Below are positions 16,895-47,588 of a stretch of 64,000 nt of DNA, piece after piece. The notes under the pieces are model-generated. The model made no database searches. It was not told where the DNA came from and was given only the letters and a program-made list of their open reading frames with translations. The stretch is from the NCBI GenBank assembly GCA_964509195.1, contig CAZDWJ010000001.1, forward strand, positions 30,311 to 94,310. The letters run 5' to 3'. The position numbers were made by a program, and so were the translations under genes. Source of the stretch: an uncultured Leptospira sp. (GTDB taxonomy: Bacteria; Spirochaetota; UBA4802; UB4802). Numbering within the stretch: position 1 is the first letter of the stretch; every line of letters starts with the position of its first letter.

Positions 16895-16896
16895 AA

Positions 16897-17819: not shown

Positions 17820-17845
17820 ACACACACTCCTTTGTGTTAATTTTT

Positions 17846-17865: not shown

Positions 17866-18362
17866 GTTTTAAACCGGGTTGGTGATCTTCAAAAAGGGAA
17901 TACCCTTTTGTATTTCACTACAACCCCCTGTCCCTCATTTTGCTTAGAACAAAATGCATAAAAAAAATGAAGAACACGGCGTTGTAGTTACTTCAATTTA
18001 AGTTTTCAAAGAACCTTACAGCTTATAGTGATGTTCGGTAGTATTATTTATATTATTAAAGGCAATAATGCACTAATATAGTCATTATAAGCCGTTTATT
18101 TCAAATTATAGAGTATTATGACTCAATTTTATCTATTTTTTGAATTTTTGAGCATATTAACCCTTAATCATCATTTCGGAATATAAAATTCTGGCTTTAG
18201 AATTTTTTTAAAATTTTTCATCAGTTTATATGCTATACTATTTTAAATTAAATTATTAGGAAGTTTCATTGCTCTCTTTACATCATTAAAATAATGCTTG
18301 TGGCATATTCTAATGTTTATTTTTGAATATTGCTCCAATATTACGTAAAAAAAAGAATAAAC

Positions 18363-18390
18363 TTGACAATAATTGGTCGAATATTAAAAT
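18363..18390 (+). promoter_or_regulatory. sigma70-type promoter candidate TTGACA-N16-TAAAAT
   Basis: Consensus -35 hexamer and good -10 hexamer, ~105 nt upstream of the ATG at 18495. Confidence 0.35.
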
Positions 18391-18494
18391 ATGCAGGTTA
18401 TGTCTATTTTTTTATTGCATATATCTTTTTACATATACCACTATATTGTTAAAATTAGATTATAAAGGATAAAATAAACAGGTTGTAGCCATCT

Positions 18495-28673: not shown

Positions 28674-29585
28674 ATGATGTTACTATCACCACTTATCAGA
28701 TACCTGAATAAGCAACGCCAGAAAAGATTATTCCCCAAAAAGAAGGTCCTTATTCTTGAAGGCGGTGGAATGCGAGGAGTTTTTTTAACTGGAGTTTTAC
28801 AAGCTTTTACGGACAGAGATTATTTCCCTTTTGAATTAATCATAGGATCATCAGCTGGCGCACTAACAGGAGTGGCATACTCTGCTGGTCAGATTTATCT
28901 GGCCAGGGATGCTTTTTTCGGAGTTCTATTGAGCGAGAGTTTTATAAAAATTTCAAATATACTACGGCCAACAAAGCATATACTAAATTTAGACTGGATG
29001 GTTTCAACAGTAATTGAAGGCAATGAGACATTAAACTTTCAATACCTTAAGCACTCAATACCAGTGTTGATAACCGCAACCGAATACAGTGATAATAACC
29101 CTCCTGAAACGGTATATCTTCATTCAAAGAAGGATGATATAATACCATCATTGAAAGCTTCTGCTGCAATCCCTGTATTGTATAGGGGCTTTATTGAATA
29201 TAACAACCGCAAACTCTGTGATGGAGGATTGCTTGATCCAATCCCTTACAAAAAAGCATTAAGCCTTGGCTATAAGGAAGAAGACATCCTGGTTGTTGTT
29301 ACCAGAAAAAAAGGGTATCGGAAAAAGGAAGAATCATTCTGGATAAGATATCTTATTGAAAATTATTTTAAGGACACAAAATACCGTTACTTAACTCAAG
29401 CTCTTGAAAATCGATATCTTATGTACAATGCAATCCTTGATGAGCTTGAACACAAGTATAAAAATATACGCATTATCTATCCACCTGATAATTTTATAGT
29501 AGACCGATTAACGCGCGACCCTAAAAAAATCCTGGAAGGATTTGAACAGGGTGTTCAGTGCGGTAAAAATTTCTTATTATCATAA
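28674..29585 (+). CDS. patatin-like phospholipase
   Basis: Oxyanion GGGMRG, nucleophile elbow GSSAG and catalytic Asp motif CDGG. Confidence 0.88.
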   Translation: MMLLSPLIRYLNKQRQKRLFPKKKVLILEGGGMRGVFLTGVLQAFTDRDYFPFELIIGSSAGALTGVAYSAGQIYLARDAFFGVLLSESFIKISNILRPTKHILNLDWMVSTVIEGNETLNFQYLKHSIPVLITATEYSDNNPPETVYLHSKKDDIIPSLKASAAIPVLYRGFIEYNNRKLCDGGLLDPIPYKKALSLGYKEEDILVVVTRKKGYRKKEESFWIRYLIENYFKDTKYRYLTQALENRYLMYNAILDELEHKYKNIRIIYPPDNFIVDRLTRDPKKILEGFEQGVQCGKNFLLS

Positions 29586-29592: not shown

Positions 29593-30642
29593 TCACTGAA
29601 CCTGCACTTTATTAACTTCTTCTTTGATTTTTTCAATACTTTGCTTATGTTTCCCTTTAATTTCTTCATAGCTTTTTCTATATGCTTCTTTAATTGCCAT
29701 TATTGCTTCATAATTAGCTTTTTGCTGTTGAACAACCTTATCAGCCTGCTGTTTTACCTTATTAAAGGTGTTAAATATTTCCTGTCTTTTTTCCTTATAA
29801 CTCTGCAAAACATGGTCTACTGCTGCGTTGGCACAATCGCCTAAAAAATAATCATCAGCTATTAACGCTACCTTAGTTTCCAGCTCACTCATATCTTTTT
29901 CTAATTTTTTAGAATCCTTTTTCTTAGTGGATGATTGTTTAAATTTTTCTATCTCAGCTGATTGCATTGAGCTTCTTTGCTCCAGCATTCCCAGATATTC
30001 CTCATAACTTGCAGCAAATTTTTCAGGCTCAAGTACAAAATCTTTATCAGCAGTATTTTTCCACACTTCAGGGTTTTTGGGGTTTTCATCAAGCAATGGC
30101 TTTTGTGCAAGTTCAGCAGTAGCTTGCTCATCTCCACGTATATTTATTTCCCCATATGGATTAACTAATGCAAGCGCTCCCTCTTCCATATTAACTCTGG
30201 AATTTGAGCTATCACTAACCGCAACAAAAAACTCTGTTCCCCTGATTGCACATACAGTGGTTGGAGTATATACTTTCTTTGATTCACCCTTTTGTAATTT
30301 TGAAATTTTTGCCTTGATGACACCATTTATTACAGAAACATTCTCTTCTTTATCTTGTATTGCGGCAACCTTAACCTTTGTATTTTCAAAAATCCTCACA
30401 GTACTTTTGTCTGCAAACTGAAATTCAGTTATACTTGCGTTCTTTGTTACAACAATATCTCCCTGAGCCAGCTGCATTCCCACCACTGCAAGTGTCTGTT
30501 TACCATCACGTTCAATTACTACATCGCCAACCACAAAGCTTATTTCCAGTGCAAAAACACACTTGGCCGACAACAAAACAGTAACAATACATACTAAATA
30601 TATTATTATAATTGATAAAACTTTTTTCATTCTATCCTCCAC
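29593..30642 (-). CDS. secreted FecR-domain protein with C-terminal coiled coil
   Basis: Signal peptide, then a FecR-like beta region (FVVGDVVIERDG...AIRGTEFFV). The C-terminal ~150 aa is Lys/Glu-rich and helical. Confidence 0.65.
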   Translation of the reverse strand: MEDRMKKVLSIIIIYLVCIVTVLLSAKCVFALEISFVVGDVVIERDGKQTLAVVGMQLAQGDIVVTKNASITEFQFADKSTVRIFENTKVKVAAIQDKEENVSVINGVIKAKISKLQKGESKKVYTPTTVCAIRGTEFFVAVSDSSNSRVNMEEGALALVNPYGEINIRGDEQATAELAQKPLLDENPKNPEVWKNTADKDFVLEPEKFAASYEEYLGMLEQRSSMQSAEIEKFKQSSTKKKDSKKLEKDMSELETKVALIADDYFLGDCANAAVDHVLQSYKEKRQEIFNTFNKVKQQADKVVQQQKANYEAIMAIKEAYRKSYEEIKGKHKQSIEKIKEEVNKVQVQ

Positions 30643-30892: not shown

Positions 30893-32095
30893 CTAAGGAT
30901 TAAATTTCATCCCCAGCATTGTGACATCATCAACAAAGCGGTCCGCTCCACAAAACTCCTGGATTTTATCAAACAAAAATTCTATTAATTCTGGTATCTC
31001 AAGTTCCCTGTGTTCATCAATTAATTGCTGAAACCGCTTTTCACCAAGAATTCTATCAACCCTATCAGGGCACTCAAAGGCCCCATCAGAAAAAAATAGC
31101 AATTTATCACCAGGCAAAAGCTCAATACTTTTTGTTGCATACAGTGACGTATCAAATATTCCGACAAAGGGTCCTGTTGTTTCCATCCTTATAACCTGTC
31201 CATCAGAATGCACTACAATAGGTGCAGGCAAGCCGGCATTTACATACTCAAGGCGGGATTTCTCCAAATCAAAATGTGCAAAAAATATCGTTGCATAATT
31301 GTAGCTCATCATCTTTTGCGTCTGTATAAGGAACTGATTCATTTCTTTCAAAATGTCAGAAGGAGGCTTTGTTACATCTACAAATGTTGTGATAGCTGTC
31401 TTTACTATTGCTGAATAAAGTGCAGCAGGTACTCCGTGACCAGATACATCCGCAAAAATAAAAGAAAAATGCTTTTCGTCATGAATAATAAAATCAAAAA
31501 AATCACCACTTATTTTTTCTACGGGTTTGAATTTTAGATAGAATGTAAACTCTTTGATATCAGGAAAAACAACAGGGAAAAGACACTGTTGCAGGTTGCT
31601 AGCAATATCAAGCTCATTCTCAATCTGAATGGAACGTGCTTGTATTTGTGCATAGAGCCGTTCTAGTTCCTGGTTTTTTAATTTAAGTTCCTCTAGCAAT
31701 TTTATATTTTCTTTTATGAGTTTATGGCGTTCATAAGCCCTATGCACTGCAAGTGTTATCTGATCATTTTTAAAAGGTTTCAGTATAAAATCAAAAGCCC
31801 CTGCCTTTAGCGCTGATATTGCCACTTCAATGTCATTATACGCAGTGATAACAATTATGGGAACATTCTCATCAATTTCATGTACTTTGTGTATAAATTC
31901 CAATCCATTAATACCCGGCAGGTTCACATCGGTTATTATGACATCTGCAGAAGTAATAACCCCACTTTTCAATGCATCTTCGGCAGTATAAAAATTGCGT
32001 ACTTTATATTCATTTTCAAGAATAAACTTCAATACTTCATTAACCATCTCATCATCATCGATGATTATTGTAGTTGGCATTTCTATTTCTTTCAT
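30893..32095 (-). CDS. response-regulator receiver - PP2C (SpoIIE-type) phosphatase
   Basis: REC domain (IIIDDD, VIITDVNLPGINGLEF, ILKP), a coiled linker and PP2C motifs (SGDFFDF, FIFADVSGHGVPAA, LFFSDG, DDVTMLG). Confidence 0.88.
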   Translation of the reverse strand: MKEIEMPTTIIIDDDEMVNEVLKFILENEYKVRNFYTAEDALKSGVITSADVIITDVNLPGINGLEFIHKVHEIDENVPIIVITAYNDIEVAISALKAGAFDFILKPFKNDQITLAVHRAYERHKLIKENIKLLEELKLKNQELERLYAQIQARSIQIENELDIASNLQQCLFPVVFPDIKEFTFYLKFKPVEKISGDFFDFIIHDEKHFSFIFADVSGHGVPAALYSAIVKTAITTFVDVTKPPSDILKEMNQFLIQTQKMMSYNYATIFFAHFDLEKSRLEYVNAGLPAPIVVHSDGQVIRMETTGPFVGIFDTSLYATKSIELLPGDKLLFFSDGAFECPDRVDRILGEKRFQQLIDEHRELEIPELIEFLFDKIQEFCGADRFVDDVTMLGMKFNP

Positions 32096-35000
32096 CTATC
32101 GAACACCATCATATATACCTTTTAATGTGCGACTATATAAACGAATTCCCATCCAGTAGGCAGGATGTTTAAAACGTTTGTCTTTCTTCAAATATTGTTG
32201 CGCTGATATTAATGAATTAACAATGCTTTCTAATGTAACAGCTTTGCAAAATTCCCTTATGAAAATTATTCTGTTAACATCTGCAACTGAAGTATTCAAC
32301 AGAATATACTTCCCCATTTCTTTTTGAATCATGAACAACAAATAATTATATGGAATCTGTAATGTATTGCTCAAATTGATAAATAAAAAGTTTGTTTGTA
32401 ACATATAATCATTAATCATCAACTCTTTTTTAAGATTATTATACTCAACAGGCACATCAACAATCATTATTCCTTTTGCTATCGTATCAAATGTAAACGC
32501 TAAACCCGATTGTTTGAGCGCTGACACAATCAGTGGATTTCTGGTGTTGTCCACATTAATCCATGTAATAGGGGCAACAGTCCCGTTCTCATCCAGCGCT
32601 GTTACCAGACAGGGCATAAAATTGATAGCCATATCACTTTTATTAAATTGAATTATTTCATACGGTATAGATTCAGTATATGCATCAGGAATAACAACAA
32701 TGGAAGTATAGCCACTGAGTTCCCTAATGACTGGTTTCATGATATCACTGATTGCCGCTTCTGTATCAAATGTCTGCTGCAATAATCCAACCCGGTTATA
32801 AAAATCAGCAACAATACCATATAATTGTGTATAAGCATTTTGCAACCGCACTGGTTGTATAAATGTTTTTGTTATTATCCAGGCAAAAATATCATTTTCA
32901 TTTTTTGTTATGTATAATAAGGCTGTCTGTCGGGGAATATTTTTTTGAATATCAATAATTGGGAAATTTTTTGCGATGAGTTCATTATAAATACTTTTAT
33001 ACCTGTTATTTTCATTAAATGTTGCTATGCCGATTATCATCCTTTGCAATTCAGCATACCGCAGTGCCTCACGTTGATTCCCTCTGCTCATTGCATACGA
33101 TATTGCATAATTGATAAGTTTATCCAGCAAATACTTATATTCAGCATAATACCACTGTATGACATCCCCTTGCAAGCTGCCTACCAGTACATCAATATTC
33201 TTGGCGATAATTTGTAACAAAGTACTCTCAGCAGTTTTTTCTGTAGAAATTTTTTGGAGTTGTATGTTCAGATCAAAAAGTGTATATAATGGTGCATCCC
33301 AGGTAGCCATCTTGCTTTCATTTAAAAGTTTTTGCGCTTCACCAGTTTTTCCTGTCATTATCGCCGAATAAATATAATTTGCATACCATATCTTTTCCAA
33401 TTCAAATGGCACCTGTTTCAAACTTTTGCAGGAATCATATGCCTGAACAAAATTATTTGTTTTTTGATATGCATTGATTTTATTGAGAGCTACAATATGA
33501 GATACAATCATACCCTTTTGTGTAGCAACTGCATCGATATACTGCAATGTTCTTGAAGGAATAGCACTATTTAGTATTGTGGCCAATTTTGCAGTTGTGA
33601 ATTGTATATCAAGCCAGCACATTTTATTGCTTTTTTCAGCAATGAGCATGATGTGCTGCCATTCCTCATTGCTTATAGCTGGCTTTTGTGTTATAATTTC
33701 AAGGATAGCAAAAGGATATATAGTACTGTATTCTTCGACTACATTTGCAGGGTTGGCACTATAATTTTCTAGCTCTGTTGTTTTTATCATTTTATATGCT
33801 ACTGTGTTAGTATGAAAATCAATAGAATATCCTAAATTGTGAGCAACTAACAACTCTCGCTGAGAGGGAATATAATCTGCTTTATACAGCTTCATTATTG
33901 TTTTAGCTTTCTCACTTTCACCTAAGAGGTAAGCTCCCTGTGCATACAGTAATAGCAATTGACTAACAGGTAAAATTGAAATGCTTTGCTTTGGGATTTC
34001 AATACTGTCAGGAAGTTTTTCTTTATACTTATTTGCTTTAATTAATGCTTTATACACAATGTAATCAAAAGTCTGTGCCAGTCGTGAATCAGCAATTATT
34101 TTCTCTGCACTATTACTATCACCTTTTAAAAGGTACACATACGCACTATATGATATAGCATTTGTACTATCTTGAGATCGTATCAACTCTAATGCTTCGT
34201 CTAATTTATTCATATAAATCAAAACTTGAATTTTTTTCTCACTATACTCTTTTAAGGTTAAGCCAGCTCTCCTCCACCGTTGCAAAGCTGATAGTGCTTC
34301 ATCATACTTCCCACTCACCAGAGCATCATTAAACTCTTTTTGCTTTTTCTGAACAACCTTCTGTACATTGTCATCTCTTACTTTTTTTGAATCTGGCACT
34401 TTTCCAAGCACTATTACTTTTTCTTTCAGAGAGTCAACCAAACTCAAATCATTATTAAGAAACGACACTACAAGATTTTGAGTATCCTTTCCCGAATATA
34501 GTATAACAGTAGCTATATGTGAATATAAAGCGGCATCTGCTAAAAGCATTAATTCATCAGCTTTAATTGTTTCCATATATTTTAAAAGTGCAGAGCATTC
34601 TGTTTTGTTTGCATAACAGTAATGTGGTGTAATAGCAATAACAGGTTTATCCGTATCAACAATATATTCAGATTCATTTATGTTGCTGGTGACATTTTCA
34701 AAATTTGGAAGCTTTGTGTCTGTAGCAATCTTACCCTCTGGCAACCACACTAACCGTTCAGCATCAGCTACCCGTGAAATAGAGGGCACACACCCCAGCC
34801 CGTTTAACACAGAATTACTAATATTGGTATGAACTGCAATGAATGCATCATTAAGTATACAATATATTTTACCACCCAATGGTTGTAGAAATTTTCTCAC
34901 ATCTTCAGATAATTCCTTTGACCATGGTGATTTTGAAATTAATTTCCAGTCAATTGTATTTTTATATACCACCCAGCCATAGAGTGCATTGTTCAAAAGA

Positions 35001-38000
35001 TAAAAATGTACTACAGGCAATTCAGAAGCTTGGGGTGCATACACACCCAAATAGGGTGACAAGTATACAGAGACAGAAGCTTTATACTCAGAAAGTTTTT
35101 TGTACTGCGATGTAATTGATGCTTTATATTTTTCAACACTATCTTCTTCAAGAATTGCTTTTGTAAGTTTTTGCTCTAAATCCTGTATGGTAAAACATGT
35201 TTTTAAATATTTGTTGTAAAGAATAGTATCACTTTCATTATAAAAATAAGGGATAGATAACGCATTAAAAGCCATTGTTACTATTTGTTTGCGCTCCTGA
35301 ATTGCATACGCCTCTTTATAACGTTTATTGTTTATTAATTCATCTGTATAAGAATCATAAAGTTTTTGTATAAACTCTTTTTTCATGGCATAAAGAGGTG
35401 GCAGCAATTCAACTCGTTGCAATACTCCAGCTATGAGCTTATCTGTATTCTCTATAAGCTGCTTGATTTCTTTATACATGTGTGCCAAATCCCACAGCGT
35501 TGCTTCAGCAGTCCACAGCAAATCCTTTGACTGGATTTTATTAGCCTTAAACCGTGCACTGATGATATCATCATATCCTTCCCTAAACTTGCCAGCACGT
35601 ATTCTGCATATTCCTCTATTAATGAGCAGCTTAACAACATATTCCTGATGTAAAGCATCATTCCCATAGTAGCTAATAGCTGTAGAAAATAATTTTTCAG
35701 CATCCCTGTAATATTGAATGATTACATTAACTTTTGAAGAGTAGCTGGCATCGCCAGTTGATTCTAGACTCTGCTCCATGATTGCAGCTTTATGCATGTA
35801 CAAAATCGCAGATAAAGCATCAAATTTAATGCTATAAGCTTCTACCTGCTTGGTTGCCTGTTCCTTTAACACAGCTATATCTTGGTCAGATACCTTTTTC
35901 TTTTGAGCCTTCATCTTATTTGTATACTCATCGACAAGTGCAGTATACACTTTTTCATACATATTGCTTTTTTGCTGCGCAATTATCTCAAGAGCGTCAT
36001 CAAGGCCTGCATTCTGTTGTATAGAATTTTTCAGGCTGGAAGTATAACAGTATGACCATTGAACCAGGATTTGATATATTTTATCAATTGTTATGTTTTT
36101 ATCTTTTGCAACAGTCAGTGCTCTATCGTATAATTCCAGAGCTTTACTCATAGACCCTGCTTGGGCATAACAGTACCCTGCATTATAGAGGGCAGTAAAG
36201 TGCGCATCGGCCATTAATGAAGTTTTTTGTTTTTTTGTTATTTCAGCTACTGCTAAATAGTGCGCTACCGACTCCTGAAATCTGCCACCCTTTGCATATA
36301 TATCTGCCTGCATATTATTGATAAGGACTTCCATTTCTGTACCCGATAGCTGGGAGACTATTTTCCCTTCACCAATAACAACAGTGTCCTGTCCAAGGTC
36401 ATAGAAGTAAACAGGCCCAAGCCCGGCAAATTTCCAGCCAATTTTATACTGCACTGAGGTTTCCTTTTGTAATGAGCGTCTGGCAAGTTCAAGATATACA
36501 AGCGCCTGGCTATCATTATCCATTCTGCGATAACATTCGGCTATCTCTATATATAGACGGGAAGGGCTTTCACCAATTTGAAAACGCGTTATTTGTATCA
36601 AGGCTTTACTATACCACTCAATGGTCTTATCATAATTTCCCTGCATCCGTTCAAAAAGGGCAAAATACTTATACAATGTGTACAGTGTCTCTGCAATTGC
36701 AGACTCATTTTTCTGAGCTATCGCCCTATAGACAGCATAGGCTTTTTGCATTGATGAATGTGCACCTGCATAATTGCCCTGTTGCCACAAGCAATAGCCG
36801 TAATGATAATAAAATAACGCTTCTTCTTTTAAATTTGAAAAAACCTTTTTAAATTCAATCGCTTTAGCATAATTGCGTGCAGCTAAATTAAAATTTTTCA
36901 AAAGAAAATAGATATTGCCTGTATTACAATAAATATCAGCTTCTCTTTGAGGGTTGATGTTTTCATCATTTGCAGCCAGTGCCTTCTCATACATGGGTAT
37001 AGTTTTCTCCCACAGATACTCAGGGAAATATGCATCAATTACACGTTTCTTAGATGGGAAAAGAACTCTAAGCTCATCAATATACTGATATATCCACCCT
37101 TTGAGTAAATATGCATCCACAAACATATCATCTATGAAAAGTGACCAATCAATATGTCGCAAAGCACTTGAAAATAATCCAAGAAGTGTTTCAAATTCCT
37201 GTGAAGATCTGCCATCCATGGCTTCTGGGGAAGGTGCCAGTTCTTGCGCCTGTTTTACATAGATATATCCCAGTCCATATATGTGAGCCTTATCAAAATC
37301 CATCCGCGCAATAGGCAATCGTTCCAAGTATTCCTTTTCAATATTGTTTATTGAGCTGCTCTGCAATAATGCCAGCATTGCATTAATATACCCTGTGTGA
37401 GCATCTGGTGCGTGTGCACTGTATATATCTCTATATCGCCGTTTGAGATGCAGTAGTGTATTCATGGTTATGTAGCGCTTATATAATGCTGCTGCATCTT
37501 TGAAATTACCTTCAGCGCCGAGTCTTTGTCCGGTGTTTTCAAAATATTCAATGAGTTGCTCTATAATAGAACGTATATCCTGCTTCCACTGTGCCTGATA
37601 ATTATTGACTGCAGCTTCATAGCACACAACCCACTCATCATTTTTTTGGACATAGTATAATTGCCCCAACGTTACATTAATTAAAAAATATGCAACATCA
37701 AGCTTCTTGGTATGTTCCAGCCCCTGTTTCAAAAGCGTTATTGCTTCATCATTGCGTGACAGTTCAATTAATCCTGCTGCTGCTACATAATTCATGATGG
37801 TTTTCACAATTGGCACAGTATATCGCCCGGCGGCTTCCAACGCTTTTGTATATCTTTCCTGAGCTGGGATATTTTTTGTATTTTCTATGATCTCAACAGT
37901 AATGGCATTTTTCAGATAGGTGTATGAAGATTGCAGTACAGCAATCCATTCTTCTGGTATGGTAAATGTGTTATACGCTAGTAACCCCGCCTTATAACGT

Positions 38001-39475
38001 ACATACATTAAACGGGTGTAATTGGGGTATTTTGCGATAATGTTGCTGTATATGCTCCTGGCTCTGTCATACATTTTTTCGTTTACATATACATCAGCCA
38101 GCTCTTCCATAAAGAATGGTGCTAGCTTTTCATCATTTTGCGCCGACAGTTCCTTAACACTATTCTCAAGCAAGGATATCTTTTCCCTGTCTTTCACAGT
38201 TTTTATTCGTGAGTAAATGAGCGCAGGCTTACTGTCAGATGCCATATCAGCAAGAATAGATGAAACAAATGAATACTGCTTTACGTACGATAGCTCATAC
38301 AATGCTTTAGCAATAACTATCTTAGAATCAGCATCATTTGCTTCTTTGAAAAAATGATATGTTGCAAACAGGCATCGCAGGTAGCGCTCTTCATCGTCAA
38401 AATCCTCTTTATACTTCAATGCAAGCTCATACTGCCGCTGTGCATTCTTTTGTTTTGGTATTATCCCGGTATGGGGGATCATGGCAATGTTAATAAACTT
38501 ATCCTCAACAATGCTGTACACAATCACACCTTCAGCATACGGCACCCAGCGTGGTGTTGCAGAAGGCTCTTCAATAAGCGTCAGGGGATATTCTTCATTT
38601 TTGTTTACATTATACCCATACAGCATACCCCTATCATTGGCATCCACTATACCATCGTTGTTGGTATCATACTGAATGCGTATGAAATAAATTTCATTAC
38701 TGCTTTTCCCAAAGCTGGGCGATAGCTCTACATATTTGTTATTGGTGATCTGATTAATTTCACCTGTCACAAGATTAATTGTGAATACATTGCTTCCCAT
38801 GCGGCTTTTTTTCACAAATATAAGTTCTTTGCCATCACTGGAAAAGCGTGGCTGCATTCCCTCTGTAATCTTGCGGATACCAGTACCTTCCCTCCCCATA
38901 ATATAGATGGATTCTTCACCATCACGGGTGGAAGAAAACGCAATGAATTTGCCATCAGGCGAAAAACAGGGAGAGGCATCACGTACCGGCCTGACAGCTC
39001 CCGAAAGAGGATCTTTTATGACAGTAATATTTTTTGATGGCACTTCCTGATCGCCCTGTGCAATTATCTTTTCTGGATCAAGTTTTATGATAAAGATATC
39101 GCCTTCAGGGTCATCACGTGTGGAAACAAACGCACACCATTTGCCATCCATTGCTATATCTGGCGAGAAATCACGTGCAGGATGCATGGTCACACGAACC
39201 GTAGTAATGTCATTAAGTGCACGCAGGTAGATATCAAAATTATTTCGTTCTTTATTTGATGCATAAATAAAAAACTTTCCATCAGCTGTTATACTGCCAC
39301 TAACATTAACCGACCGCTCAAAGGTAAGTGGAATAGAACGGCCTGTCCCAAAACGGTATTCCTTTGTCAATACCTGTGAATAATCAAATGGTATATCACG
39401 GTATGCTGTTGATGCACATCCCATGAAGACGAATAACAGCAGTACAAATGGCACTCTTTTCATTTTTTTACCCAT
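32096..39475 (-). CDS. 2459-aa lipoprotein: TolB-type beta-propeller + extended TPR array + degenerate CHAT-like C-terminal modules
   Basis: Lipobox LFVFMGCAS and PD40-type repeats (SPDIAMDGKWCAFVS, SPCFSPDGKFIAFSS, PRFSSDGKELIF). Many TPR-like units follow. The C-terminus has CHAT hallmarks IVVIPDAYTESIPYEII and FKHPAYWMGIRLYS. Confidence 0.7.
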   Translation of the reverse strand: MGKKMKRVPFVLLLFVFMGCASTAYRDIPFDYSQVLTKEYRFGTGRSIPLTFERSVNVSGSITADGKFFIYASNKERNNFDIYLRALNDITTVRVTMHPARDFSPDIAMDGKWCAFVSTRDDPEGDIFIIKLDPEKIIAQGDQEVPSKNITVIKDPLSGAVRPVRDASPCFSPDGKFIAFSSTRDGEESIYIMGREGTGIRKITEGMQPRFSSDGKELIFVKKSRMGSNVFTINLVTGEINQITNNKYVELSPSFGKSSNEIYFIRIQYDTNNDGIVDANDRGMLYGYNVNKNEEYPLTLIEEPSATPRWVPYAEGVIVYSIVEDKFINIAMIPHTGIIPKQKNAQRQYELALKYKEDFDDEERYLRCLFATYHFFKEANDADSKIVIAKALYELSYVKQYSFVSSILADMASDSKPALIYSRIKTVKDREKISLLENSVKELSAQNDEKLAPFFMEELADVYVNEKMYDRARSIYSNIIAKYPNYTRLMYVRYKAGLLAYNTFTIPEEWIAVLQSSYTYLKNAITVEIIENTKNIPAQERYTKALEAAGRYTVPIVKTIMNYVAAAGLIELSRNDEAITLLKQGLEHTKKLDVAYFLINVTLGQLYYVQKNDEWVVCYEAAVNNYQAQWKQDIRSIIEQLIEYFENTGQRLGAEGNFKDAAALYKRYITMNTLLHLKRRYRDIYSAHAPDAHTGYINAMLALLQSSSINNIEKEYLERLPIARMDFDKAHIYGLGYIYVKQAQELAPSPEAMDGRSSQEFETLLGLFSSALRHIDWSLFIDDMFVDAYLLKGWIYQYIDELRVLFPSKKRVIDAYFPEYLWEKTIPMYEKALAANDENINPQREADIYCNTGNIYFLLKNFNLAARNYAKAIEFKKVFSNLKEEALFYYHYGYCLWQQGNYAGAHSSMQKAYAVYRAIAQKNESAIAETLYTLYKYFALFERMQGNYDKTIEWYSKALIQITRFQIGESPSRLYIEIAECYRRMDNDSQALVYLELARRSLQKETSVQYKIGWKFAGLGPVYFYDLGQDTVVIGEGKIVSQLSGTEMEVLINNMQADIYAKGGRFQESVAHYLAVAEITKKQKTSLMADAHFTALYNAGYCYAQAGSMSKALELYDRALTVAKDKNITIDKIYQILVQWSYCYTSSLKNSIQQNAGLDDALEIIAQQKSNMYEKVYTALVDEYTNKMKAQKKKVSDQDIAVLKEQATKQVEAYSIKFDALSAILYMHKAAIMEQSLESTGDASYSSKVNVIIQYYRDAEKLFSTAISYYGNDALHQEYVVKLLINRGICRIRAGKFREGYDDIISARFKANKIQSKDLLWTAEATLWDLAHMYKEIKQLIENTDKLIAGVLQRVELLPPLYAMKKEFIQKLYDSYTDELINNKRYKEAYAIQERKQIVTMAFNALSIPYFYNESDTILYNKYLKTCFTIQDLEQKLTKAILEEDSVEKYKASITSQYKKLSEYKASVSVYLSPYLGVYAPQASELPVVHFYLLNNALYGWVVYKNTIDWKLISKSPWSKELSEDVRKFLQPLGGKIYCILNDAFIAVHTNISNSVLNGLGCVPSISRVADAERLVWLPEGKIATDTKLPNFENVTSNINESEYIVDTDKPVIAITPHYCYANKTECSALLKYMETIKADELMLLADAALYSHIATVILYSGKDTQNLVVSFLNNDLSLVDSLKEKVIVLGKVPDSKKVRDDNVQKVVQKKQKEFNDALVSGKYDEALSALQRWRRAGLTLKEYSEKKIQVLIYMNKLDEALELIRSQDSTNAISYSAYVYLLKGDSNSAEKIIADSRLAQTFDYIVYKALIKANKYKEKLPDSIEIPKQSISILPVSQLLLLYAQGAYLLGESEKAKTIMKLYKADYIPSQRELLVAHNLGYSIDFHTNTVAYKMIKTTELENYSANPANVVEEYSTIYPFAILEIITQKPAISNEEWQHIMLIAEKSNKMCWLDIQFTTAKLATILNSAIPSRTLQYIDAVATQKGMIVSHIVALNKINAYQKTNNFVQAYDSCKSLKQVPFELEKIWYANYIYSAIMTGKTGEAQKLLNESKMATWDAPLYTLFDLNIQLQKISTEKTAESTLLQIIAKNIDVLVGSLQGDVIQWYYAEYKYLLDKLINYAISYAMSRGNQREALRYAELQRMIIGIATFNENNRYKSIYNELIAKNFPIIDIQKNIPRQTALLYITKNENDIFAWIITKTFIQPVRLQNAYTQLYGIVADFYNRVGLLQQTFDTEAAISDIMKPVIRELSGYTSIVVIPDAYTESIPYEIIQFNKSDMAINFMPCLVTALDENGTVAPITWINVDNTRNPLIVSALKQSGLAFTFDTIAKGIMIVDVPVEYNNLKKELMINDYMLQTNFLFINLSNTLQIPYNYLLFMIQKEMGKYILLNTSVADVNRIIFIREFCKAVTLESIVNSLISAQQYLKKDKRFKHPAYWMGIRLYSRTLKGIYDGVR

Positions 39476-40056
39476 CGTCCATCTTCTTTTTGGATCCAGT
39501 CGCCTTTTTTTGCTTTAGCATGTTGCTCTTTTGCAAAATCATATCCAAACTGTATGGCTTTAGGATCTTTAGCATCCTTTGAATCAGAACTTTTGATAAA
39601 AATTATCTGACGCGCATTGTTCTCATCATTTATAACAGAACGAATAACTTCATTATCCTTTATTGACTGCAATTTTTTTTCATCAACAATACCTATATAG
39701 CCATTATACATTTCACCAACAATCCCCATGTCTTTATATTGACGTATCCTGTCAAGGTTAAGTTCGCGCATTTGTATTGCACGTAGCATTGATTCATCAA
39801 TAGCTCCAAGTGCACGGCGCTCACCTTTTGACGGCACCATAACGGTTGAAGTCACCCACGCATCTTTTTCGATTTCTTTATATTCACCAATAAGCTGTCG
39901 CTCCAATGCGGTTTTTTCACCGGTGATGTTGATAGCGGGAGGATGTATTTCAATACAGCTAGGAGCCCCTTTCAGGCATCCTGATGAACTGCAGCCTGCC
40001 TGCGAATACAGTATACCGGCAATGACAGCAAGTGCTATCGCTTGTATATGTTTCAT
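39460..40056 (-). CDS. lipoprotein with YdbL (DUF1318)-like domain, possible YnbE-YdbL fusion
   Basis: The Cys-containing N-terminus (LYSQAGCSSSGC) fits a lipoprotein signal. The YdbL-like core is MGIVGEMYNGYIGIV...VINDENNARQIIF and the tail is KKGDWIQKEDGRWVKK. I compare these with the E. coli YdbL segments recalled as GRVGETFYGYL and GEYVQGINGKWVRK. Confidence 0.65.
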   Translation of the reverse strand: MKHIQAIALAVIAGILYSQAGCSSSGCLKGAPSCIEIHPPAINITGEKTALERQLIGEYKEIEKDAWVTSTVMVPSKGERRALGAIDESMLRAIQMRELNLDRIRQYKDMGIVGEMYNGYIGIVDEKKLQSIKDNEVIRSVINDENNARQIIFIKSSDSKDAKDPKAIQFGYDFAKEQHAKAKKGDWIQKEDGRWVKK

Positions 40057-42776
40057 AGCGTTTCCTCCCTTACTCTATTAAAAAATTCAATGACAGGTAT
40101 ACGTTCATAGCGCACTCTTTCATTATTGACAGTAACAAAAACACCAAGCACCTTTTTTCTGAACAACACCGTTGGATACACCAGCCCTTTATCTATATAA
40201 AAATCAAAACCGGTAATAATGAGCGAATTATCCACCGCAAACTGCGCCATTCCTAATTTAGACTTTCCACGCTCTTCATTTATTCCCTTAAATAGCCTGT
40301 TTGCAAATTGCTCCCCAACCTTATATATGTTCACCGAACCTGAAATATCAAAATCCTCTGCAATGTTGAGATTTTTTCCCGCAACCTGTGCATTAAGCGA
40401 TAACAGCGAATCTTTATTAATTTTTACAGATTCTGGCTTATCTAACGTGCCTATATCAATATCATTGGCATTGAGCATCATCCTGAATTCCATATTTTTT
40501 GGATTGAGATCTGCTAAATTAAAATTTAATTCTTTAAGAGTAATTGTCCCCTTTAGGACCCGGGCACGCACATCTTTAATTTCTACCATGTTACGATTAA
40601 AGCCAATATACCCGTGCAAATTGCTAAGATATTCAAATGGGATATTGCGTGAAGGGTGCTGCGCAACAATTTTACCAACTGAAAAATTTGCCTTCTGTTT
40701 GAAAAGCTGAATGTTCAATACATCAGCTGAATCAAATGGCATCTTAAAGCTCTGACCCATAGAATAGGCTATGGGTATATCCATATCAACAGGACCAACA
40801 AAAAGCCTGGTGTTGTTACTCAGTGTTAATATATGTGCCTGTAAACTCCCTTTCGCAACTAATGATTGCATTGTACCTTTAAGTCGCAAAAATACATTCA
40901 GTACGCCGCTTAATGTATAGTCACCAAAATTAACCGGTGCCCTGGGGGCCACGTTTACTCCTGCATCAACATCAAGTGCAACATCTTCTTTTGTAATTAC
41001 TGTGCCTTTTGCATACATCCTGGCATGATGCTTTTTGCTCGAAATATCAAATGAGGCTATATCAATTTTACTTTTTTGCGGTTTCTGCGTAATTGCTACT
41101 TTCACTGTTAAATCATCAATAGAATAATCCGGTATTTTACAAAGTGCTTTGAGATTTATTTTATTTGTTTCATCCGAAACACTTACATCTGTGAGTATAT
41201 TCAACGTCACCGGCTTTGTAATAGGAGTTGATTCTAAGGATTGCTTTAACTGAACAGGCAAAGCATACGCTATTGAAGGGATATCAAACTTCAATGTAGA
41301 CACATTAATAGTAGCATCCATAGTATTACCTACTATTACTGAACCAGCTGCTTCACATCGTAGTGTCTCGGCTGCTATCTCTGGGGCTTTGTGTACCAGG
41401 ATTAACTTCTTGATGTTCAGTGATTTTGTATTCATTGTGTACACTACATCACATTGTACACTAATAGCGTTATCCCGCGACCTGTTTTCCTCAAGTGTAT
41501 ACACAAAATGCGGAAGGCCAACATTTATAGATGCTTCAATGCTATTGTTGAGCAACACAGCAGAATAGGGTATATCAACTTGTGGGATAGAGATCGCAAA
41601 TCCATCTGTGGCAAAAGCCAGCCGATTGCCCCGTATTGAACCCTTTATTGTTAGCCCGTATTTATCACCCGCAATCATAAGAGGAAAAATTGAAATCGTT
41701 CCATTAAAATACGGCTGTTTACCTAAAAGTACACTGGTATAGCGGTACACTTCATTGAGGCGAATATTGCTGTCAATCATACCCAACTGTATCCGGGGCT
41801 GTGAGTTTACGTGTGCGATAGTACCTGCAAATGAAATCCATGTCGATTGTCCAAAGACAATCTGTACTTTATTGCAGCGTAATACATCTTCTGCTGGATT
41901 ATACACAATATCATATTCCACATTAGCATTGAGTGGTGCCAGGTGTTTTTTGGTAAACCTAACTGGGGTATTGTGTGTGCCACATTTGAAGTTGCTTGAC
42001 AGATGCTTTTCATCAGGATCGTACAAAAGAGTGAAGGTAAATAAAAGGGGGGGCCCTGCAATCACATCCTTTGATACAAATGAAAGATGCAACGTTTCTT
42101 CAGGATTAACTGTAATGTGTAATTTATCAAATAGCATTATTGCCAGCATATTCAATGGGATGTGGCGTACCCTGGGAAGGTGCACAGAAATGCCAGTTGA
42201 AAAATTATCCAGGTTCAGATTGTAGGTGCTGCTGGTAATCTTTAATGACAAGTTTTCCAGCACAAACCCAAAAAGAATTTCTACGGGAACTGGAAAGGAT
42301 AGTTCGCCTTTTTCTTCCTTTTTTCCTTTTTCAGCTTCTTCTTTTTCTTCTTTCTCTTCTTTTTCAGAGGGCTTCACCAGTTTTTGTACATTCCATACAC
42401 CTTTCTGCTCTTCAATAAATATTTTTGGATTATACAAACCAATCTCATAAATCTTTATCTTACCTATCAATAGTGAGAAAAAACTATAGTGCACTTTCAA
42501 TTGATCAAAATGGATTACAGGCTTTGAATTAACGTTATCTGTAAGTGTGAAATTTTTAATTTCAAACCCATTGAATAATGAAAAATGCGTTACCTGGCAT
42601 GAAGCACGTGCATTTAAATTGAACTCTATCTGACTTGTAATAATTTTTTCTACTCTGCCGTTTGTTAATACTATGTTGGCAATAAAAAGAATAATCACTA
42701 TCAGAACAATCAAACTACAGAGTACTATGCCAATATAAGAAATAATTTTAATGATATATCGCAGTAATTCTTTCAA
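40053..42776 (-). CDS. AsmA-like / YdbH-like large membrane-anchored envelope protein
   Basis: 907 aa with a single N-terminal TM helix, then a long beta-rich sequence. Its position directly upstream of a YdbL-like gene mirrors E. coli ydbH-ynbE-ydbL. The family assignment rests on context and architecture. Confidence 0.5.
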   Translation of the reverse strand: MKELLRYIIKIISYIGIVLCSLIVLIVIILFIANIVLTNGRVEKIITSQIEFNLNARASCQVTHFSLFNGFEIKNFTLTDNVNSKPVIHFDQLKVHYSFFSLLIGKIKIYEIGLYNPKIFIEEQKGVWNVQKLVKPSEKEEKEEKEEAEKGKKEEKGELSFPVPVEILFGFVLENLSLKITSSTYNLNLDNFSTGISVHLPRVRHIPLNMLAIMLFDKLHITVNPEETLHLSFVSKDVIAGPPLLFTFTLLYDPDEKHLSSNFKCGTHNTPVRFTKKHLAPLNANVEYDIVYNPAEDVLRCNKVQIVFGQSTWISFAGTIAHVNSQPRIQLGMIDSNIRLNEVYRYTSVLLGKQPYFNGTISIFPLMIAGDKYGLTIKGSIRGNRLAFATDGFAISIPQVDIPYSAVLLNNSIEASINVGLPHFVYTLEENRSRDNAISVQCDVVYTMNTKSLNIKKLILVHKAPEIAAETLRCEAAGSVIVGNTMDATINVSTLKFDIPSIAYALPVQLKQSLESTPITKPVTLNILTDVSVSDETNKINLKALCKIPDYSIDDLTVKVAITQKPQKSKIDIASFDISSKKHHARMYAKGTVITKEDVALDVDAGVNVAPRAPVNFGDYTLSGVLNVFLRLKGTMQSLVAKGSLQAHILTLSNNTRLFVGPVDMDIPIAYSMGQSFKMPFDSADVLNIQLFKQKANFSVGKIVAQHPSRNIPFEYLSNLHGYIGFNRNMVEIKDVRARVLKGTITLKELNFNLADLNPKNMEFRMMLNANDIDIGTLDKPESVKINKDSLLSLNAQVAGKNLNIAEDFDISGSVNIYKVGEQFANRLFKGINEERGKSKLGMAQFAVDNSLIITGFDFYIDKGLVYPTVLFRKKVLGVFVTVNNERVRYERIPVIEFFNRVREETL

Positions 42777-43286: not shown

Positions 43287-46200
43287 TTATAAATCTTTAA
43301 TTATCTTCCTATCGATTGCAACTGCTGTGTGAGCAGGATGTTCAATAACCTCATTCATTTCAGTCTTTTCCTTAAAGCGTAAGACATTTAACATGAATAT
43401 TTCAAGTTTGTTCAATGTTGTAGGTGGCAGAGTATTGCCATCAATTTCAACTGACAAAACAGGATAACCTTGAGCACGTGCCCATGGAGTAAGAATGCCT
43501 TCAATGACACGGCCAATCAAACAGGCAAATGGTGAAATATTGACAATGCCTGAATAGCCATCCTGCATTGCCATTGCTGCTACTCCACTTGAAACAGTAA
43601 TCTCAGATTGAAGCTCCAGATCCACAAAATGTTTTTGTGACATATTCATGATATGGTACATATCATGAGGTGTTTCTGGAATCAAACGGGTTTTCTTAAA
43701 TGCATCTTTAACTTTTTTCTCAACATAATGTTTATACCACTGCTCAATATAAAACTTCAACAGAAATCTGAACTCAGGGATGATAATCTTTTTATACCAT
43801 GGTACCAATGTAATAGCCTTCTTGTATTCATACTGGCGTACGAAATCACAGTAATATATCCATTCACTTACGCCTGAAACTTTTGCAATAATACCTTTTC
43901 TGCTGAAGTGCTTCACCAGTTCATCAACCGCAAAATCATCCCTGCGAACATAGATTTCACCCACTATAAGTACTTTTGGGCATTGTTCGATAGCTCTCTG
44001 TAATGGAATATTGCTGATAGTATTCGCAATCTTTTTCAATACCGGTATAACCTTAGTGACATCCTTCTCGGCAACTGAGATTAACTCCTGCCACAACTGA
44101 TCATACAGTGCCAGTGCACTAACAGGATCCTTGGCACATGCTCTGAGTGAGGTTTCAATGTCCTTCATATAATCACTGATGACAACGCCCCACCAGGCAT
44201 GCTTTGAGAAGTGTGGTCCTAATTCAGTATATGAATGCGATGAATCCAGTGTCACCACACAGACATTTTCAAGGCGCAAATCTTTAAATAGGTTTTCATA
44301 AAACACATAATATTGCCCCGTACGGCATGGCCCTTGTGTTGTAGGTATAAATAGAAGATATATTTCATCCTTTTTATATCGTGGTGAAGCAAAGTACTGC
44401 AATGCGCTTCCCAACACAAGATGTGAGGGCAAACACTCTTTTCCTGATACAAATTGCCGTGCTATTTGTAACGTCCTGGCATCCGGCACTTGCATCGCCT
44501 CAGCGTGTATGCCAGCAGATCGCAAAGAAGCAGCCAAAAGCTCTGCACCTAAACGACCCATACTAGCTAAAAGCAATGTTACTTTATTGTTATTGCGCAC
44601 CGTAATTTTTTCATTTGTAATAATGTTGCGTACATACAGTTCATCATCCTCAATCACAAAGCGCAAACCGTTATCATAACGCTGGGACTTTTCATCCACA
44701 CATTTCTGCCGGTAGCCTTCTATAATATCCAGAAATGCTTCAATGCGCGTATCAATACCTGCATCAGCCGTGTGGGAATCAAGCTCTAAGATGAGAAAAG
44801 GCTTTGAGCCCATAATCCATTTAAGATAGTGCAGCATGAATGAATCAGGAGCACACGAAAAATTTGAAATAAACGTCACATAGATATTATCTTCTTTTGC
44901 AAGCATAACGCTTGCTTTCATATCCTGCTGGCCATAAAACCAGTACATGTTGGAAAATATTGTTTCATCCTCAAATGGCAGTATGTCAAATGGAATAACT
45001 GTATACCCAATGCTGGTAAATTTTTTGGGAATACCCATATTTGCATCTTTAGTAAACGCATTATATGGCCTCCCTAATAGCGCAATTACAGGCTTTTGCA
45101 ACATCCGCGCAAACTCCAATGCCTGCATACCAAGGTTTCTGGCTTTTTCAAAATACTCTTTCTGCTTTTCCAGCGCTAACCTGAAAGCTTTTTTCCCTTC
45201 TTTTTTTGAAAATCCTAATGTTACTGCAACTTTTACAAATGAGTCTTCAGTAATTTTATCCGATAGTTTAAAACTAATAACCGGTGAAAGTATTTTTTCT
45301 TTAGGGATTTCATCAAATGCCTTTTTAATATAATATGGCAATCCCTGAGTGATCGGACAAAATGTAGCACGTGCATCATCCTGGTAGCTCTCCATCTCTT
45401 TGATGTGCGGCAGGAAGATATAATCAACATGTTTATCAAGAATATTTTTAACAGCACCGTGAGCTATCTCAGCAGGGAAGCAATAGGCACTTTCAACTTT
45501 AGCCATTCCCTCTTCTGAAATTTTATCAGAGGTAACTGTCGCCACACCCAATTCATTAAAAAACCATGAATACAGTGGCCACAGTGTATATGTAGAAAAA
45601 CACAGGGGAATACCCACCGTTATTGACGCATCCCGTGGTGTTTCCTGTGGTGCACATTCACAGAATAATAACTCATTTCTCTTTTCAATAAAATCAACAA
45701 CTTCATTTTCATTGATAATTCTTTTTTTGCGCTTATTAGCATACTTACTGCACCTGCCGCCAAACATATATTTATTGCCATTGACGTTAAGCATTCTGAT
45801 ACTACAGTAGTTATCACATGCTTTGCAGGTAAACTCTCGTTCATAGACAATTTCAGTATTCAGAATTGCATCAAGAGAATAATATTTTTTTTGCATCAGA
45901 CCATCCTGTAACTTCTGCAGTGCAACTATCGCCACACCAAAACACCCTAAAAGTTCAGGATCTGGTGGTACAGTAATATGCTTTCCCAGCAACATGGCAA
46001 ATGCAAGTGGTACTGCCTTATTTTTTGCCACACCACCCTGAAGTACAATAGAATTACCAATAGTTCTGTTTCCCACAACACGATTGAGATAGTTAGCAAC
46101 AATAGACGTTACAAGGCCTGCAGTTATATCTTCCTTGCTAGCTCCCTGCTGAATAGCCTTGCGTATGTCTGAATTAATAAACGCTGAACAGTGCTCACCA

Positions 46201-47588
46201 AACTTGAGTGGCTTCTGTGCCTTAAGTGCAATTTCACCAATTTCCCATGCGTGGGCTATATTCAAATCACCCTGAGCAGACTCTTCCAAAAATGATCCAG
46301 TTCCTGCAGAACAGGCTTCATTCATTGCATAATCAATAGGCACACCATTTTTTAAATACACATACTTGGCATCCTGCCCGCCAATCTCAAATATTGTATC
46401 AATGTCGGGCTTGAAATACGTTGTTCCAACCGAATGTGCAATGATTTCATTATAGATAGCCGGTGTTTCCAGAAATACTCCCAGTATTTCACGTGATGAA
46501 CCAGTAGTGGCAGTAAGCGAAATGGTAATGGGACTATCGCCTATTTGTTCTTTCAGCTGCTTTTGTATCTCAGCTATGCACTTTTTCAACGCTTTTACCG
46601 GATCACCATGCGTGCGCCCATAATATGCTGCCACAATTTCATGGGTTTCTATATCAACAAGGCATGCCTTGGTAGTAGTGGACCCTCCATCAACGCCCAG
46701 AATGTATTCACCACCTGGTTTTGCAACACTACGTTTTGAAGGGATATAGGTAACTTTATCACATGCTGTTTGTAAACTGTTAAACCGGGGAAAGCTTATA
46801 CAATGTGTTTCAAATATATTATCTCCAAGTGGTTCACCATACTGCTGTGCCAATAGCGCTGCACCATAGGCCTCAAAATATGAAGCTTCATCTGGAATTA
46901 TAAACGTAACATCAGGCACCTTTTCTTGTATAAATTGCAAAATATATGGATTATGTGTTATGCCTCCAGTCAAAATAACAGTACCCTGCCGTATTTTTGC
47001 TTTTTTTAAAAAATCTACAACTTTAATTGCCATAACATTGGAAAGCGAGAGGACAATATCACCTTTGGACGCCTCACCTTTATTCAATCTGTGTGTACAG
47101 TCACTTTTCATAAACACAGAACAGCGCGTTGATAGTTTTAACACCTTACTATTTTCTGGAATTTTATGTATATCGCCCAGTACCATATCCATGCGGGCTA
47201 ACTGCTGCTTAAAAAACTCACCTGTGCCAGCAGCGCATTTGTTCCCGGAAAAATTATTTTTTATCTTTTTATTTTCATCGATAGTATATACTACAAGGTC
47301 CTCTCCACCCATGGACACCACTGCATCGGGATAACAATCCATATGTTTCAATGCTTCTTCTATGCACACGGATTCTATAACACGGGGCAGATGAAGCAAA
47401 AACCGGCCTTCATTACCGGTAACTATCGCTTTTGGATTCCCTGGTATTTTTAATTGAGTAAGCATTGAGGTAAGTGTACCAGGCACATTACCTTCATGTG
47501 GCATGATACTAAAACATTCCATTTTTTTATTATTTAAAATGACGACCTTAACACTGGTAGAACCAATATTAATACCCACAGTAACCAT
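43287..47588 (-). CDS. 1433-aa BadF/BadG/BcrA/BcrD-type double ATPase (acyl-CoA dehydratase activase-like) fused to two activase-associated (DUF2229-like) domains
   Basis: Two actin-fold ATPase units (GINIGSTSVKV..NKCAAGTGEFF and GVDGGSTTTKA..NEACSAGTGSFLE). These are followed by a Cys cluster (CKACDNYCS...GGRCSKY) and a ~750-aa C-terminal region. Confidence 0.75.
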   Translation of the reverse strand: MVTVGINIGSTSVKVVILNNKKMECFSIMPHEGNVPGTLTSMLTQLKIPGNPKAIVTGNEGRFLLHLPRVIESVCIEEALKHMDCYPDAVVSMGGEDLVVYTIDENKKIKNNFSGNKCAAGTGEFFKQQLARMDMVLGDIHKIPENSKVLKLSTRCSVFMKSDCTHRLNKGEASKGDIVLSLSNVMAIKVVDFLKKAKIRQGTVILTGGITHNPYILQFIQEKVPDVTFIIPDEASYFEAYGAALLAQQYGEPLGDNIFETHCISFPRFNSLQTACDKVTYIPSKRSVAKPGGEYILGVDGGSTTTKACLVDIETHEIVAAYYGRTHGDPVKALKKCIAEIQKQLKEQIGDSPITISLTATTGSSREILGVFLETPAIYNEIIAHSVGTTYFKPDIDTIFEIGGQDAKYVYLKNGVPIDYAMNEACSAGTGSFLEESAQGDLNIAHAWEIGEIALKAQKPLKFGEHCSAFINSDIRKAIQQGASKEDITAGLVTSIVANYLNRVVGNRTIGNSIVLQGGVAKNKAVPLAFAMLLGKHITVPPDPELLGCFGVAIVALQKLQDGLMQKKYYSLDAILNTEIVYEREFTCKACDNYCSIRMLNVNGNKYMFGGRCSKYANKRKKRIINENEVVDFIEKRNELLFCECAPQETPRDASITVGIPLCFSTYTLWPLYSWFFNELGVATVTSDKISEEGMAKVESAYCFPAEIAHGAVKNILDKHVDYIFLPHIKEMESYQDDARATFCPITQGLPYYIKKAFDEIPKEKILSPVISFKLSDKITEDSFVKVAVTLGFSKKEGKKAFRLALEKQKEYFEKARNLGMQALEFARMLQKPVIALLGRPYNAFTKDANMGIPKKFTSIGYTVIPFDILPFEDETIFSNMYWFYGQQDMKASVMLAKEDNIYVTFISNFSCAPDSFMLHYLKWIMGSKPFLILELDSHTADAGIDTRIEAFLDIIEGYRQKCVDEKSQRYDNGLRFVIEDDELYVRNIITNEKITVRNNNKVTLLLASMGRLGAELLAASLRSAGIHAEAMQVPDARTLQIARQFVSGKECLPSHLVLGSALQYFASPRYKKDEIYLLFIPTTQGPCRTGQYYVFYENLFKDLRLENVCVVTLDSSHSYTELGPHFSKHAWWGVVISDYMKDIETSLRACAKDPVSALALYDQLWQELISVAEKDVTKVIPVLKKIANTISNIPLQRAIEQCPKVLIVGEIYVRRDDFAVDELVKHFSRKGIIAKVSGVSEWIYYCDFVRQYEYKKAITLVPWYKKIIIPEFRFLLKFYIEQWYKHYVEKKVKDAFKKTRLIPETPHDMYHIMNMSQKHFVDLELQSEITVSSGVAAMAMQDGYSGIVNISPFACLIGRVIEGILTPWARAQGYPVLSVEIDGNTLPPTTLNKLEIFMLNVLRFKEKTEMNEVIEHPAHTAVAIDRKIIKDL

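Follow-up and report, generated by a model that had tools for sequence, protein, structure and literature searches.

Separase, a eukaryotic protein of the cytoplasm or nucleus, has a helical-repeat scaffold that bears two caspase-like domains, one of them active and the other a degenerate copy. Among bacterial proteins, TPR-CHAT resembles separase (PMC9729208). In TPR-CHAT, or Csx29, of the type III-E CRISPR Craspase, an array of tetratricopeptide repeats (TPRs) is followed by a caspase-fold CHAT domain; this cytoplasmic protein of ~700 amino acids (aa) is bound to Cas7-11, and its dyad, H585/C627, is active (PMC9729208). The Myxococcus xanthus anti-sigma factor DdvA crosses the membrane once; its anti-sigma domain is cytoplasmic, and its CHAT module retains H862 and C907 (PMC11506125). 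In Escherichia coli, YdbH, an AsmA-like protein of the inner membrane, and the lipoprotein YnbE together build an intermembrane bridge, and periplasmic YdbL, which is itself degraded by DegP, tunes YdbH-YnbE assembly (PMC11126948, PMC13464000). Here we analyze a giant lipoprotein of an uncultured Leptospira sp., encoded by an intact 2,459-aa open reading frame (ORF) with an ATG start at 32096..39475 (-) in a 64,000-nucleotide stretch of DNA (the window). Like Csx29, which is the best structural match of both its CHAT-like modules, the giant carries a CHAT caspase fold behind a TPR array. Unlike Csx29, it is a predicted exported lipoprotein with a beta-propeller, two CHAT modules and no catalytic dyad. 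Literature searches found no paper on this family or on LIC_11025 to LIC_11027.

A CHAT-fold domain without a catalytic dyad occupies residues 2184-2448 (32132..32926, -), as assigned by AlphaFold2, Foldseek and hhalign. The query has no match to Pfam CHAT (PF12770) even at E<=10, whether the whole protein or its C-terminal 349 aa alone is scanned, and an NCBIfam scan of it returned no CHAT match. We predicted the structures of both CHAT-like regions, and AlphaFold2 gave a pLDDT (predicted local distance difference test score) of 91.6 for the C-terminal segment, with a pTM (predicted template modeling score) of 0.91, and of 91.5 for the middle one. When the C-terminal model was searched against the PDB with Foldseek, the first eight matches were all Csx29/TPR-CHAT chains of Craspase (E 8e-8 to 3e-6; template modeling (TM) scores 0.52-0.60). 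Across the Csx29/TPR-CHAT matches, E ranged from 8e-8 to 2e-5. Lower matches included gingipain R (E 1e-3) and the periplasmic TPR-CHAT of DdvA (8rot_A, E 3e-3). DdvA resembles the giant in having a TPR-CHAT module in the periplasm, but it lacks a propeller, has another gene context and keeps its dyad.

Profile comparisons placed the domain more firmly among CHAT sequences. Alignment A1 comprises query residues 2105-2459 and 37 orthologues; as a profile against 1.84 billion representative proteins it found 70 sequences at E<=1e-30, which are the family itself, and 10,063 at E<=1e-3, which belong to the wider CHAT superfamily. From the listed matches outside the family, we assembled a canonical set of 46 CHAT modules with H..HG and SAC motifs, and hhalign aligned A1 with this set at 99.9% probability (E 1.8e-34) over 364 columns. 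A PDB sequence search with the C-terminal profile gave one non-significant match to a CHAT protein (8tl0_A, E 0.15). The CHAT core motifs IPD..IPFE, DVN..F and HPAYWxGxRLY are nearly invariant in A1, and the strings that the preliminary description of this gene, made from the letters alone, had taken for the domain boundaries are in place: IVVIPDAYTESIPYEII begins at residue 2258, and the last residue of FKHPAYWMGIRLYS is 2448. By these results, the C-terminal domain shares both homology and fold with the canonical CHAT proteases. The two similarities on which that description had relied are thus both significant, CHAT by Foldseek and hhalign and PD40 by Pfam.

The same alignment identified the columns in which CHAT proteases carry their catalytic residues. 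The canonical lHfAxHG aligns with I2336-M-I2338-V-D-V-P2342-V, and the canonical LVtLSAC with F2363-L-F-I-N-L-S2369. Pro2342 (codon 32450..32452, -) therefore stands in the catalytic His column and Ser2369 (codon 32369..32371, -) in the catalytic Cys column; both codons were checked. The strings IMIVDVPVEYN and LFINLSNT, which had been proposed to replace HxxTHG and LSAC, are the ones that fill these columns in the profile-profile alignment, with HxxTHG on I2338-V-D-V-P2342-V and LSAC on I2366-N-L-S2369, which leaves no intact dyad in the query. In the AlphaFold2 model, Pro2342 lies three residues after the strand 2335-2339 and Ser2369 two residues after the strand 2363-2367, as expected for a caspase fold, and ~16 residues are absent between the two columns relative to canonical CHAT. 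We next examined 86 Spirochaetota orthologues for retained catalytic residues and found none. The His column is occupied by Pro (17), Lys (15), Glu (12), Gln (11), Ser (8) and others, and never by His; the Cys column holds Asp (18), Gly (15), Ala (13) and others, with Ser in four, and never Cys. A His conserved in 65 of the 86 is the first, non-catalytic His of lHfAxHG and is Ile in the query's clade. Loss of the dyad from the C-terminal domain is thus shown, and it is fixed across the Spirochaetota orthologues examined; by its sequence, the giant probably does not cut peptide bonds.

It could still be a protease that works through other residues, for example with Ser2369 as a nucleophile and a nearby base, or with the propeller feeding a cryptic site. 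The Ser in the query's Cys column agrees with such an arrangement, and there are precedents for propeller-gated proteases in tricorn and DPP-IV, whose Tricorn_N and DPPIV_N domains appear as precomputed matches in homologues of the giant. However, Ser occurs at this position in the four orthologues only, and in the closest relatives it is replaced by Ala, Thr, Asn or Gly. Moreover, the residues conserved at >=90% in the C-terminal domain of A1 include no His, Cys or Ser, and no peptidase family besides CHAT was detected anywhere in the giant. We therefore regard residual proteolysis as very improbable.

A second CHAT-like module, without the catalytic Cys, lies in the middle of the giant at residues 1488-1691 (34403..35014, -), again by AlphaFold2, Foldseek and hhalign. 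Its best Foldseek matches are also TPR-CHAT chains, at values weaker than those of the C-terminal domain (E 1.6e-4 to 1.4e-3; TM 0.35-0.40). Alignment A2, which consists of query residues 1455-1790 and 29 orthologues, stays in register with the canonical CHAT set for 217 columns, at an hhalign probability of 90.4% and an E value of 1.4e-6; Glu occupies its Cys column, and alignment in the His region is poor. A PDB sequence search with the middle profile returned TPR proteins only. Because direct hhalign comparison of the middle and C-terminal modules is weak (probability 9%, E 0.0036), the kinship of the two is demonstrated only by way of the canonical CHAT profile. An earlier, weaker CHAT-like module had been suspected from GGKIYCILNDAF...YSHIATVILYSG (residues 1534-1662), and the hhalign and TPR-CHAT Foldseek matches bear this out. 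The middle module is a second, more degenerate dead CHAT. Unlike separase, in which one of the two domains is active, the giant has two dead copies, ~500 residues apart.

The distribution of the family shows how far the dead version extends. A protein search returned ~100 full-length homologues of 2,400-2,700 aa with 26-87% identity, all from Spirochaetota metagenome-assembled genomes (MAGs), and databases name them 'tetratricopeptide repeat protein', 'PD40 domain-containing protein' or 'hypothetical'. No cultured host was found among the named cluster members. Two MAG records that carry the operon, at loci L006 and L044, are titled 'Leptospira biflexa isolate SulCav...'. Their propellers are only 43-80% identical, and the species name on these records appears unreliable. 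Some 30 more distant orthologues carry a precomputed Pfam CHAT match, and the C-terminal 320 aa of four of them (P0017, P0018, P0059 and P0088) score 33-39 bits against the Pfam CHAT cut-off of 24, at the two ends of the profile only.

Live dyads were found in related giants of other phyla. The distant matches include 46 giants of 2,237-2,877 aa, 44 of which are co-linear with the N-terminal 1,440 residues of the query. The co-linear giants have signal peptides, a propeller at ~50-360, TPRs at ~770-1130, a C-terminal CHAT and, in the named examples, 2,400-2,880 aa in all. In the C-terminal CHAT of most of the 46, HxxxH[GAS] and [LM]S[AG]C stand ~45 residues apart, which is also the spacing of H862 and C907 in DdvA (PMC11506125). 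Named examples come from Planctomycetota (MBI2191633.1), Deltaproteobacteria MAGs (NOZ86864.1 and MCB9228882.1), Candidatus Nitronauta of the Nitrospinota (QPJ60538.1, Candidatus Nitronauta litoralis) and candidate division KSB1. Many of the distant giants have a second match to the C-terminal profile near residue 1400-1600, and in none of the 46 does this region hold both dyad motifs. Whereas the giants of other phyla keep HxxxHG and [LM]SAC, the query's clade has lost both catalytic residues and ~16 residues between them. In a rough neighbor-joining tree of the propeller, all dead Spirochaetota proteins form one clade apart from the live ones, which fits one ancient loss. Outside that clade, P0174, P0185, P0225, P0233 and P0238 fail one or both dyad motifs in a simple pattern test, and across the giants the dyad may have been lost more than once. 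A periplasmic pseudo-protease scaffold of this size had been called unusual. That judgment needs qualifying, since giant PD40-TPR-CHAT proteins with an intact dyad exist in several phyla; what is special is a whole dead clade with a fixed gene position.

If the CHAT-like regions had no function, they could be decaying remnants, with only the propeller and the first TPR array still of importance. Several features of the C-terminal half agree with this. Conservation across homologues is highest in the propeller and TPR array 1 and lowest beyond residue 1450, so that the C-terminal half is the least conserved. Twelve of the 57 complete orthologues are short giants of 1,363-1,879 aa without the C-terminal third; those at loci L025, L030, L032, L040, L043, L044, L051, L052, L055, L056 and L057 stop near or just past the middle module and lack TPR array 2 and the C-terminal CHAT. 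The ratio of nonsynonymous to synonymous substitution rates (dN/dS), obtained by comparing the query with three genomes at ~70% identity, is 0.10 in the propeller, 0.12-0.15 in TPR array 1, 0.17-0.19 in TPR array 2, 0.23-0.25 in the C-terminal CHAT-like domain and 0.26-0.30 in the middle module, all of these values being rough because dS, at ~1.0-1.5, is near saturation. The CHAT-like regions have a dN/dS 2-2.5 times that of the propeller. On the other hand, a dN/dS of ~0.25 is far below 1, and the frame has stayed open across ~1,000 codons in most lineages. Both modules are folded by AlphaFold2 with pLDDT >91, and the CHAT core motifs have hardly changed. Both dead modules are under purifying selection and are less constrained than the N-terminal half, and we consider functionless decay unlikely.

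The remaining parts of the giant were assigned as follows. Its N-terminus, MGKKMKRVPFVLLLFVFMGC, has a basic KKMKR, a hydrophobic stretch and Cys20 preceded by Gly; this signal peptide and lipobox (FMG-C20) are encoded at 39416..39475 (-). The lipobox proposed earlier (FMGC) holds up in the orthologues, since Cys preceded by Gly, Ser or Ala is found at the matching position in 79 of the 86 full-length proteins. The giant is therefore predicted to be exported and lipid-anchored in the periplasm. Its true start is possibly Met5 (39463..39461), where orthologue N-termini begin, as MKR....

A PD40 beta-propeller follows at residues 48-345 (38441..39334, -), supported by Pfam PD40, a partial TIGR02800 match and the conservation profile. 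Pfam PD40 matches the query in three stretches (E 1.6e-15; 57 bits against a cut-off of 20.9), and the propeller, at ~12% of the protein length, is the most conserved part of the giant. TolB likewise has a periplasmic PD40 beta-propeller, and we considered whether the giant might be TolB. Its match to the TolB equivalog TIGR02800 is partial (profile positions 281-400) and, at 93 bits, far below the cut-off of 343, and its neighbors are AsmA-like, DUF1318 and PP2C genes and not a tol-pal neighborhood. For these reasons the giant has a PD40 propeller without being TolB; of the TolB-type propeller first suggested, the propeller stands and TolB orthology does not. The ~1500-aa TPR array that had been described is likewise real but divided, the middle CHAT-like module splitting it into two arrays. 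TPR array 1 covers residues 351-1454 (35114..38425, -), with TPR_12 at E 4.7e-23 and TPR_2, TPR_16 and TPR_14 also above their Pfam cut-offs over residues 458-1129. TPR array 2 covers residues 1697-2179 (32939..34387, -) and is recognized from helical repeats in both AlphaFold2 models and from PDB TPR matches with profile A2.

The genes upstream of the giant suggest a role for it. Directly upstream is a gene for a 198-aa DUF1318 (YdbL-family) lipoprotein (39460..40056, -; Pfam DUF1318, 52 bits against a cut-off of 27), preceded by a gene for a 907-aa membrane-anchored, putatively AsmA-like protein of the LIC_11026 family (40053..42776, -; NCBIfam NF047499, E 5.6e-87). The latter has an N-terminal membrane helix and, just after the N-terminal membrane-proximal region, a Glu/Lys-rich low-complexity segment, EKEEKEEKEEAEKGKKEEKGE, at residues ~137-160. 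The AsmA-like and DUF1318 genes overlap, and the DUF1318 gene overlaps the start of the giant: the ATG of Met5 shares the junction ATGA with the upstream TGA. PDB searches with both upstream proteins were uninformative. We scanned for related loci with the propeller alignment, taking one genome per species, and kept 80 of 129 loci, all of them in MAGs of Spirochaetota or Leptospirales. In each of the 64 loci that extend far enough upstream, the giant comes directly after the AsmA-like and DUF1318 genes, showing that it is the third member of a conserved unit. The same order occurs with live dyads: the giants P0187, P0193 and P0196, which are co-linear with the query, also follow an AsmA-like gene (1,230-1,311 aa) and a DUF1318 lipoprotein gene, and the DUF1318 proteins of these three loci align with that of the window over nearly their full length.

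This arrangement resembles the E. coli ydbH-ynbE-ydbL operon in that one operon holds a gene for a membrane-anchored, putatively AsmA-like protein together with a DUF1318 (YdbL-family) gene. It differs from the E. coli operon in having no YnbE gene and an extra third gene of 2,459 aa, and the DUF1318 protein (~200 aa) is a lipoprotein whereas YdbL is soluble. As the two upstream genes overlap, there is no space for a YnbE ORF. The idea that the 198-aa protein is a YnbE-YdbL fusion is unsupported; its whole length is conserved as a DUF1318 lipoprotein subfamily. Judged by gene order alone, the giant would form a functional group with the YdbH and YdbL counterparts of spirochaetes.

The genes downstream suggest another role. 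The stop codon TAG of the giant directly abuts the ATG of a response-regulator/PP2C (SpoIIE) phosphatase gene (30893..32095, -; Pfam) with no spacer (TAGATG), and a FecR-domain (LipL45-like) gene follows at 29593..30642 (-; Pfam FecR, with NCBIfam similarity to Lsa19, Lsa33 and LipL45). The giant might accordingly be a periplasmic sensor that relays ligand binding to the response-regulator/PP2C and FecR-like proteins instead of a factor for envelope assembly, and DdvA offers a precedent for a periplasmic TPR-CHAT sensor (PMC11506125). Of 54 loci, 23 have a PP2C gene on the downstream side, 26 a FecR gene and 34 at least one of the two. In Turneriella-like genomes, the relay would run to a partner-switching set of GAF-PP2C, RsbW-like and STAS proteins; behind the giant of locus L003 come GAF-SpoIIE, HATPase_c_2 and STAS genes (15559-18743), which we read as GAF-GAF-PP2C, RsbW-like kinase and STAS genes. 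Yet neither downstream gene is present in 20 of the 54 loci, while the upstream pair is invariant, and the giant has no transmembrane or cytoplasmic part with which to contact a cytoplasmic response regulator. We therefore give a sensor that acts in place of an envelope-assembly factor a small chance of being correct, although sensor and scaffold roles are not mutually exclusive.

Other features of the window were recorded as well. A patatin-like phospholipase gene (28674-29585, +) adjoins the operon on the opposite strand and is syntenic in many relatives; it may be another lipid-related neighbor. Upstream of the operon lies a gene for a 1,433-aa BcrAD_BadFG/DUF2229 (CoA-enzyme activase-like) protein (43287-47588, -), which is syntenic in many related loci and sometimes lies downstream on the other strand. 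The window has a G+C content of ~37% and a single tRNA gene, for tRNA-Leu(CAG) (6928-7011, -). Near-identical DNA is present in soil, hot-spring and sludge metagenomes, and only DNA runs hold the sequence.

Since both CHAT domains lack catalytic residues and the gene lies behind genes related to a lipid bridge, the giant is probably a non-cutting scaffold and not a protease. More specifically, we think it reasonably likely that it is a non-catalytic periplasmic scaffold or adaptor tied to an AsmA-like envelope bridge. The pseudo-protease scaffold of the preliminary description is borne out as far as the dyad columns are concerned, which hold Pro and Ser; the scaffold role itself is our interpretation. 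The propeller, the TPR arrays and the retained CHAT cleft would hold partner proteins, the likeliest of which would be the products of the two upstream genes, which resemble YdbH and YdbL of the E. coli lipid-bridge system. Live-dyad relatives may cleave such a partner, possibly the ancestral job, and the spirochaetes may have kept binding without cleavage. A more far-reaching proposal is tentative, and we think it rather unlikely: the giant could supply the outer partner or regulator that is otherwise missing from an AsmA-like intermembrane lipid bridge of spirochaetes. Its ancestors, which are live in a sister clade and in the same operon, would have been CHAT proteases that controlled assembly by cutting the bridge or the DUF1318/YdbL-like factor, and the spirochaetal pseudo-protease would bind the same partner uncut.

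Several observations weigh against a scaffold tied to the bridge. The partners are assigned from gene order alone, and this order is not universal. A Turneriella-like orthologue (L003) lacks AsmA-like and DUF1318 neighbors; among the seven live-dyad giants sampled, three (P0175, P0165 and P0162) lack both and a further one, P0207, has only a DUF1318 gene nearby, 1.2 kb upstream. The AsmA-like assignment itself derives from sub-threshold Pfam matches at the N-terminus (AsmA, 28.6 bits against 29.8; DUF748, 35.2 against 50) and from a match to an NCBIfam family whose function is unknown. The locus has no YnbE-like gene, and the N-terminal half of the 198-aa protein has no Pfam match at E<=10. 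Because the short giants lack the C-terminal third, the dead C-terminal CHAT is dispensable in some lineages, and the substitution ratios that speak for selection on it are approximate.

The giant is TPR-CHAT by fold and homology but fails the defining catalytic feature, and it should therefore be filed as a CHAT-fold pseudo-protease and not as a CHAT protease. Three features appear to be new: the dead version extends through a whole clade, the dead modules stand in tandem, and the association with AsmA-like and DUF1318 genes is invariant. CHAT domains are annotated as proteases in databases, and here ~130 species-level genomes encode a giant, predicted exported TPR-CHAT protein that has lost the dyad. 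With the fold kept under selection in its absence, the family is a clear case of a bacterial pseudo-protease. The gene order shared with live-dyad relatives links a caspase-like module with the poorly understood machinery of outer-membrane phospholipid transport, and the active and dead versions make a natural pair for dissecting this link between CHAT and lipid transport.

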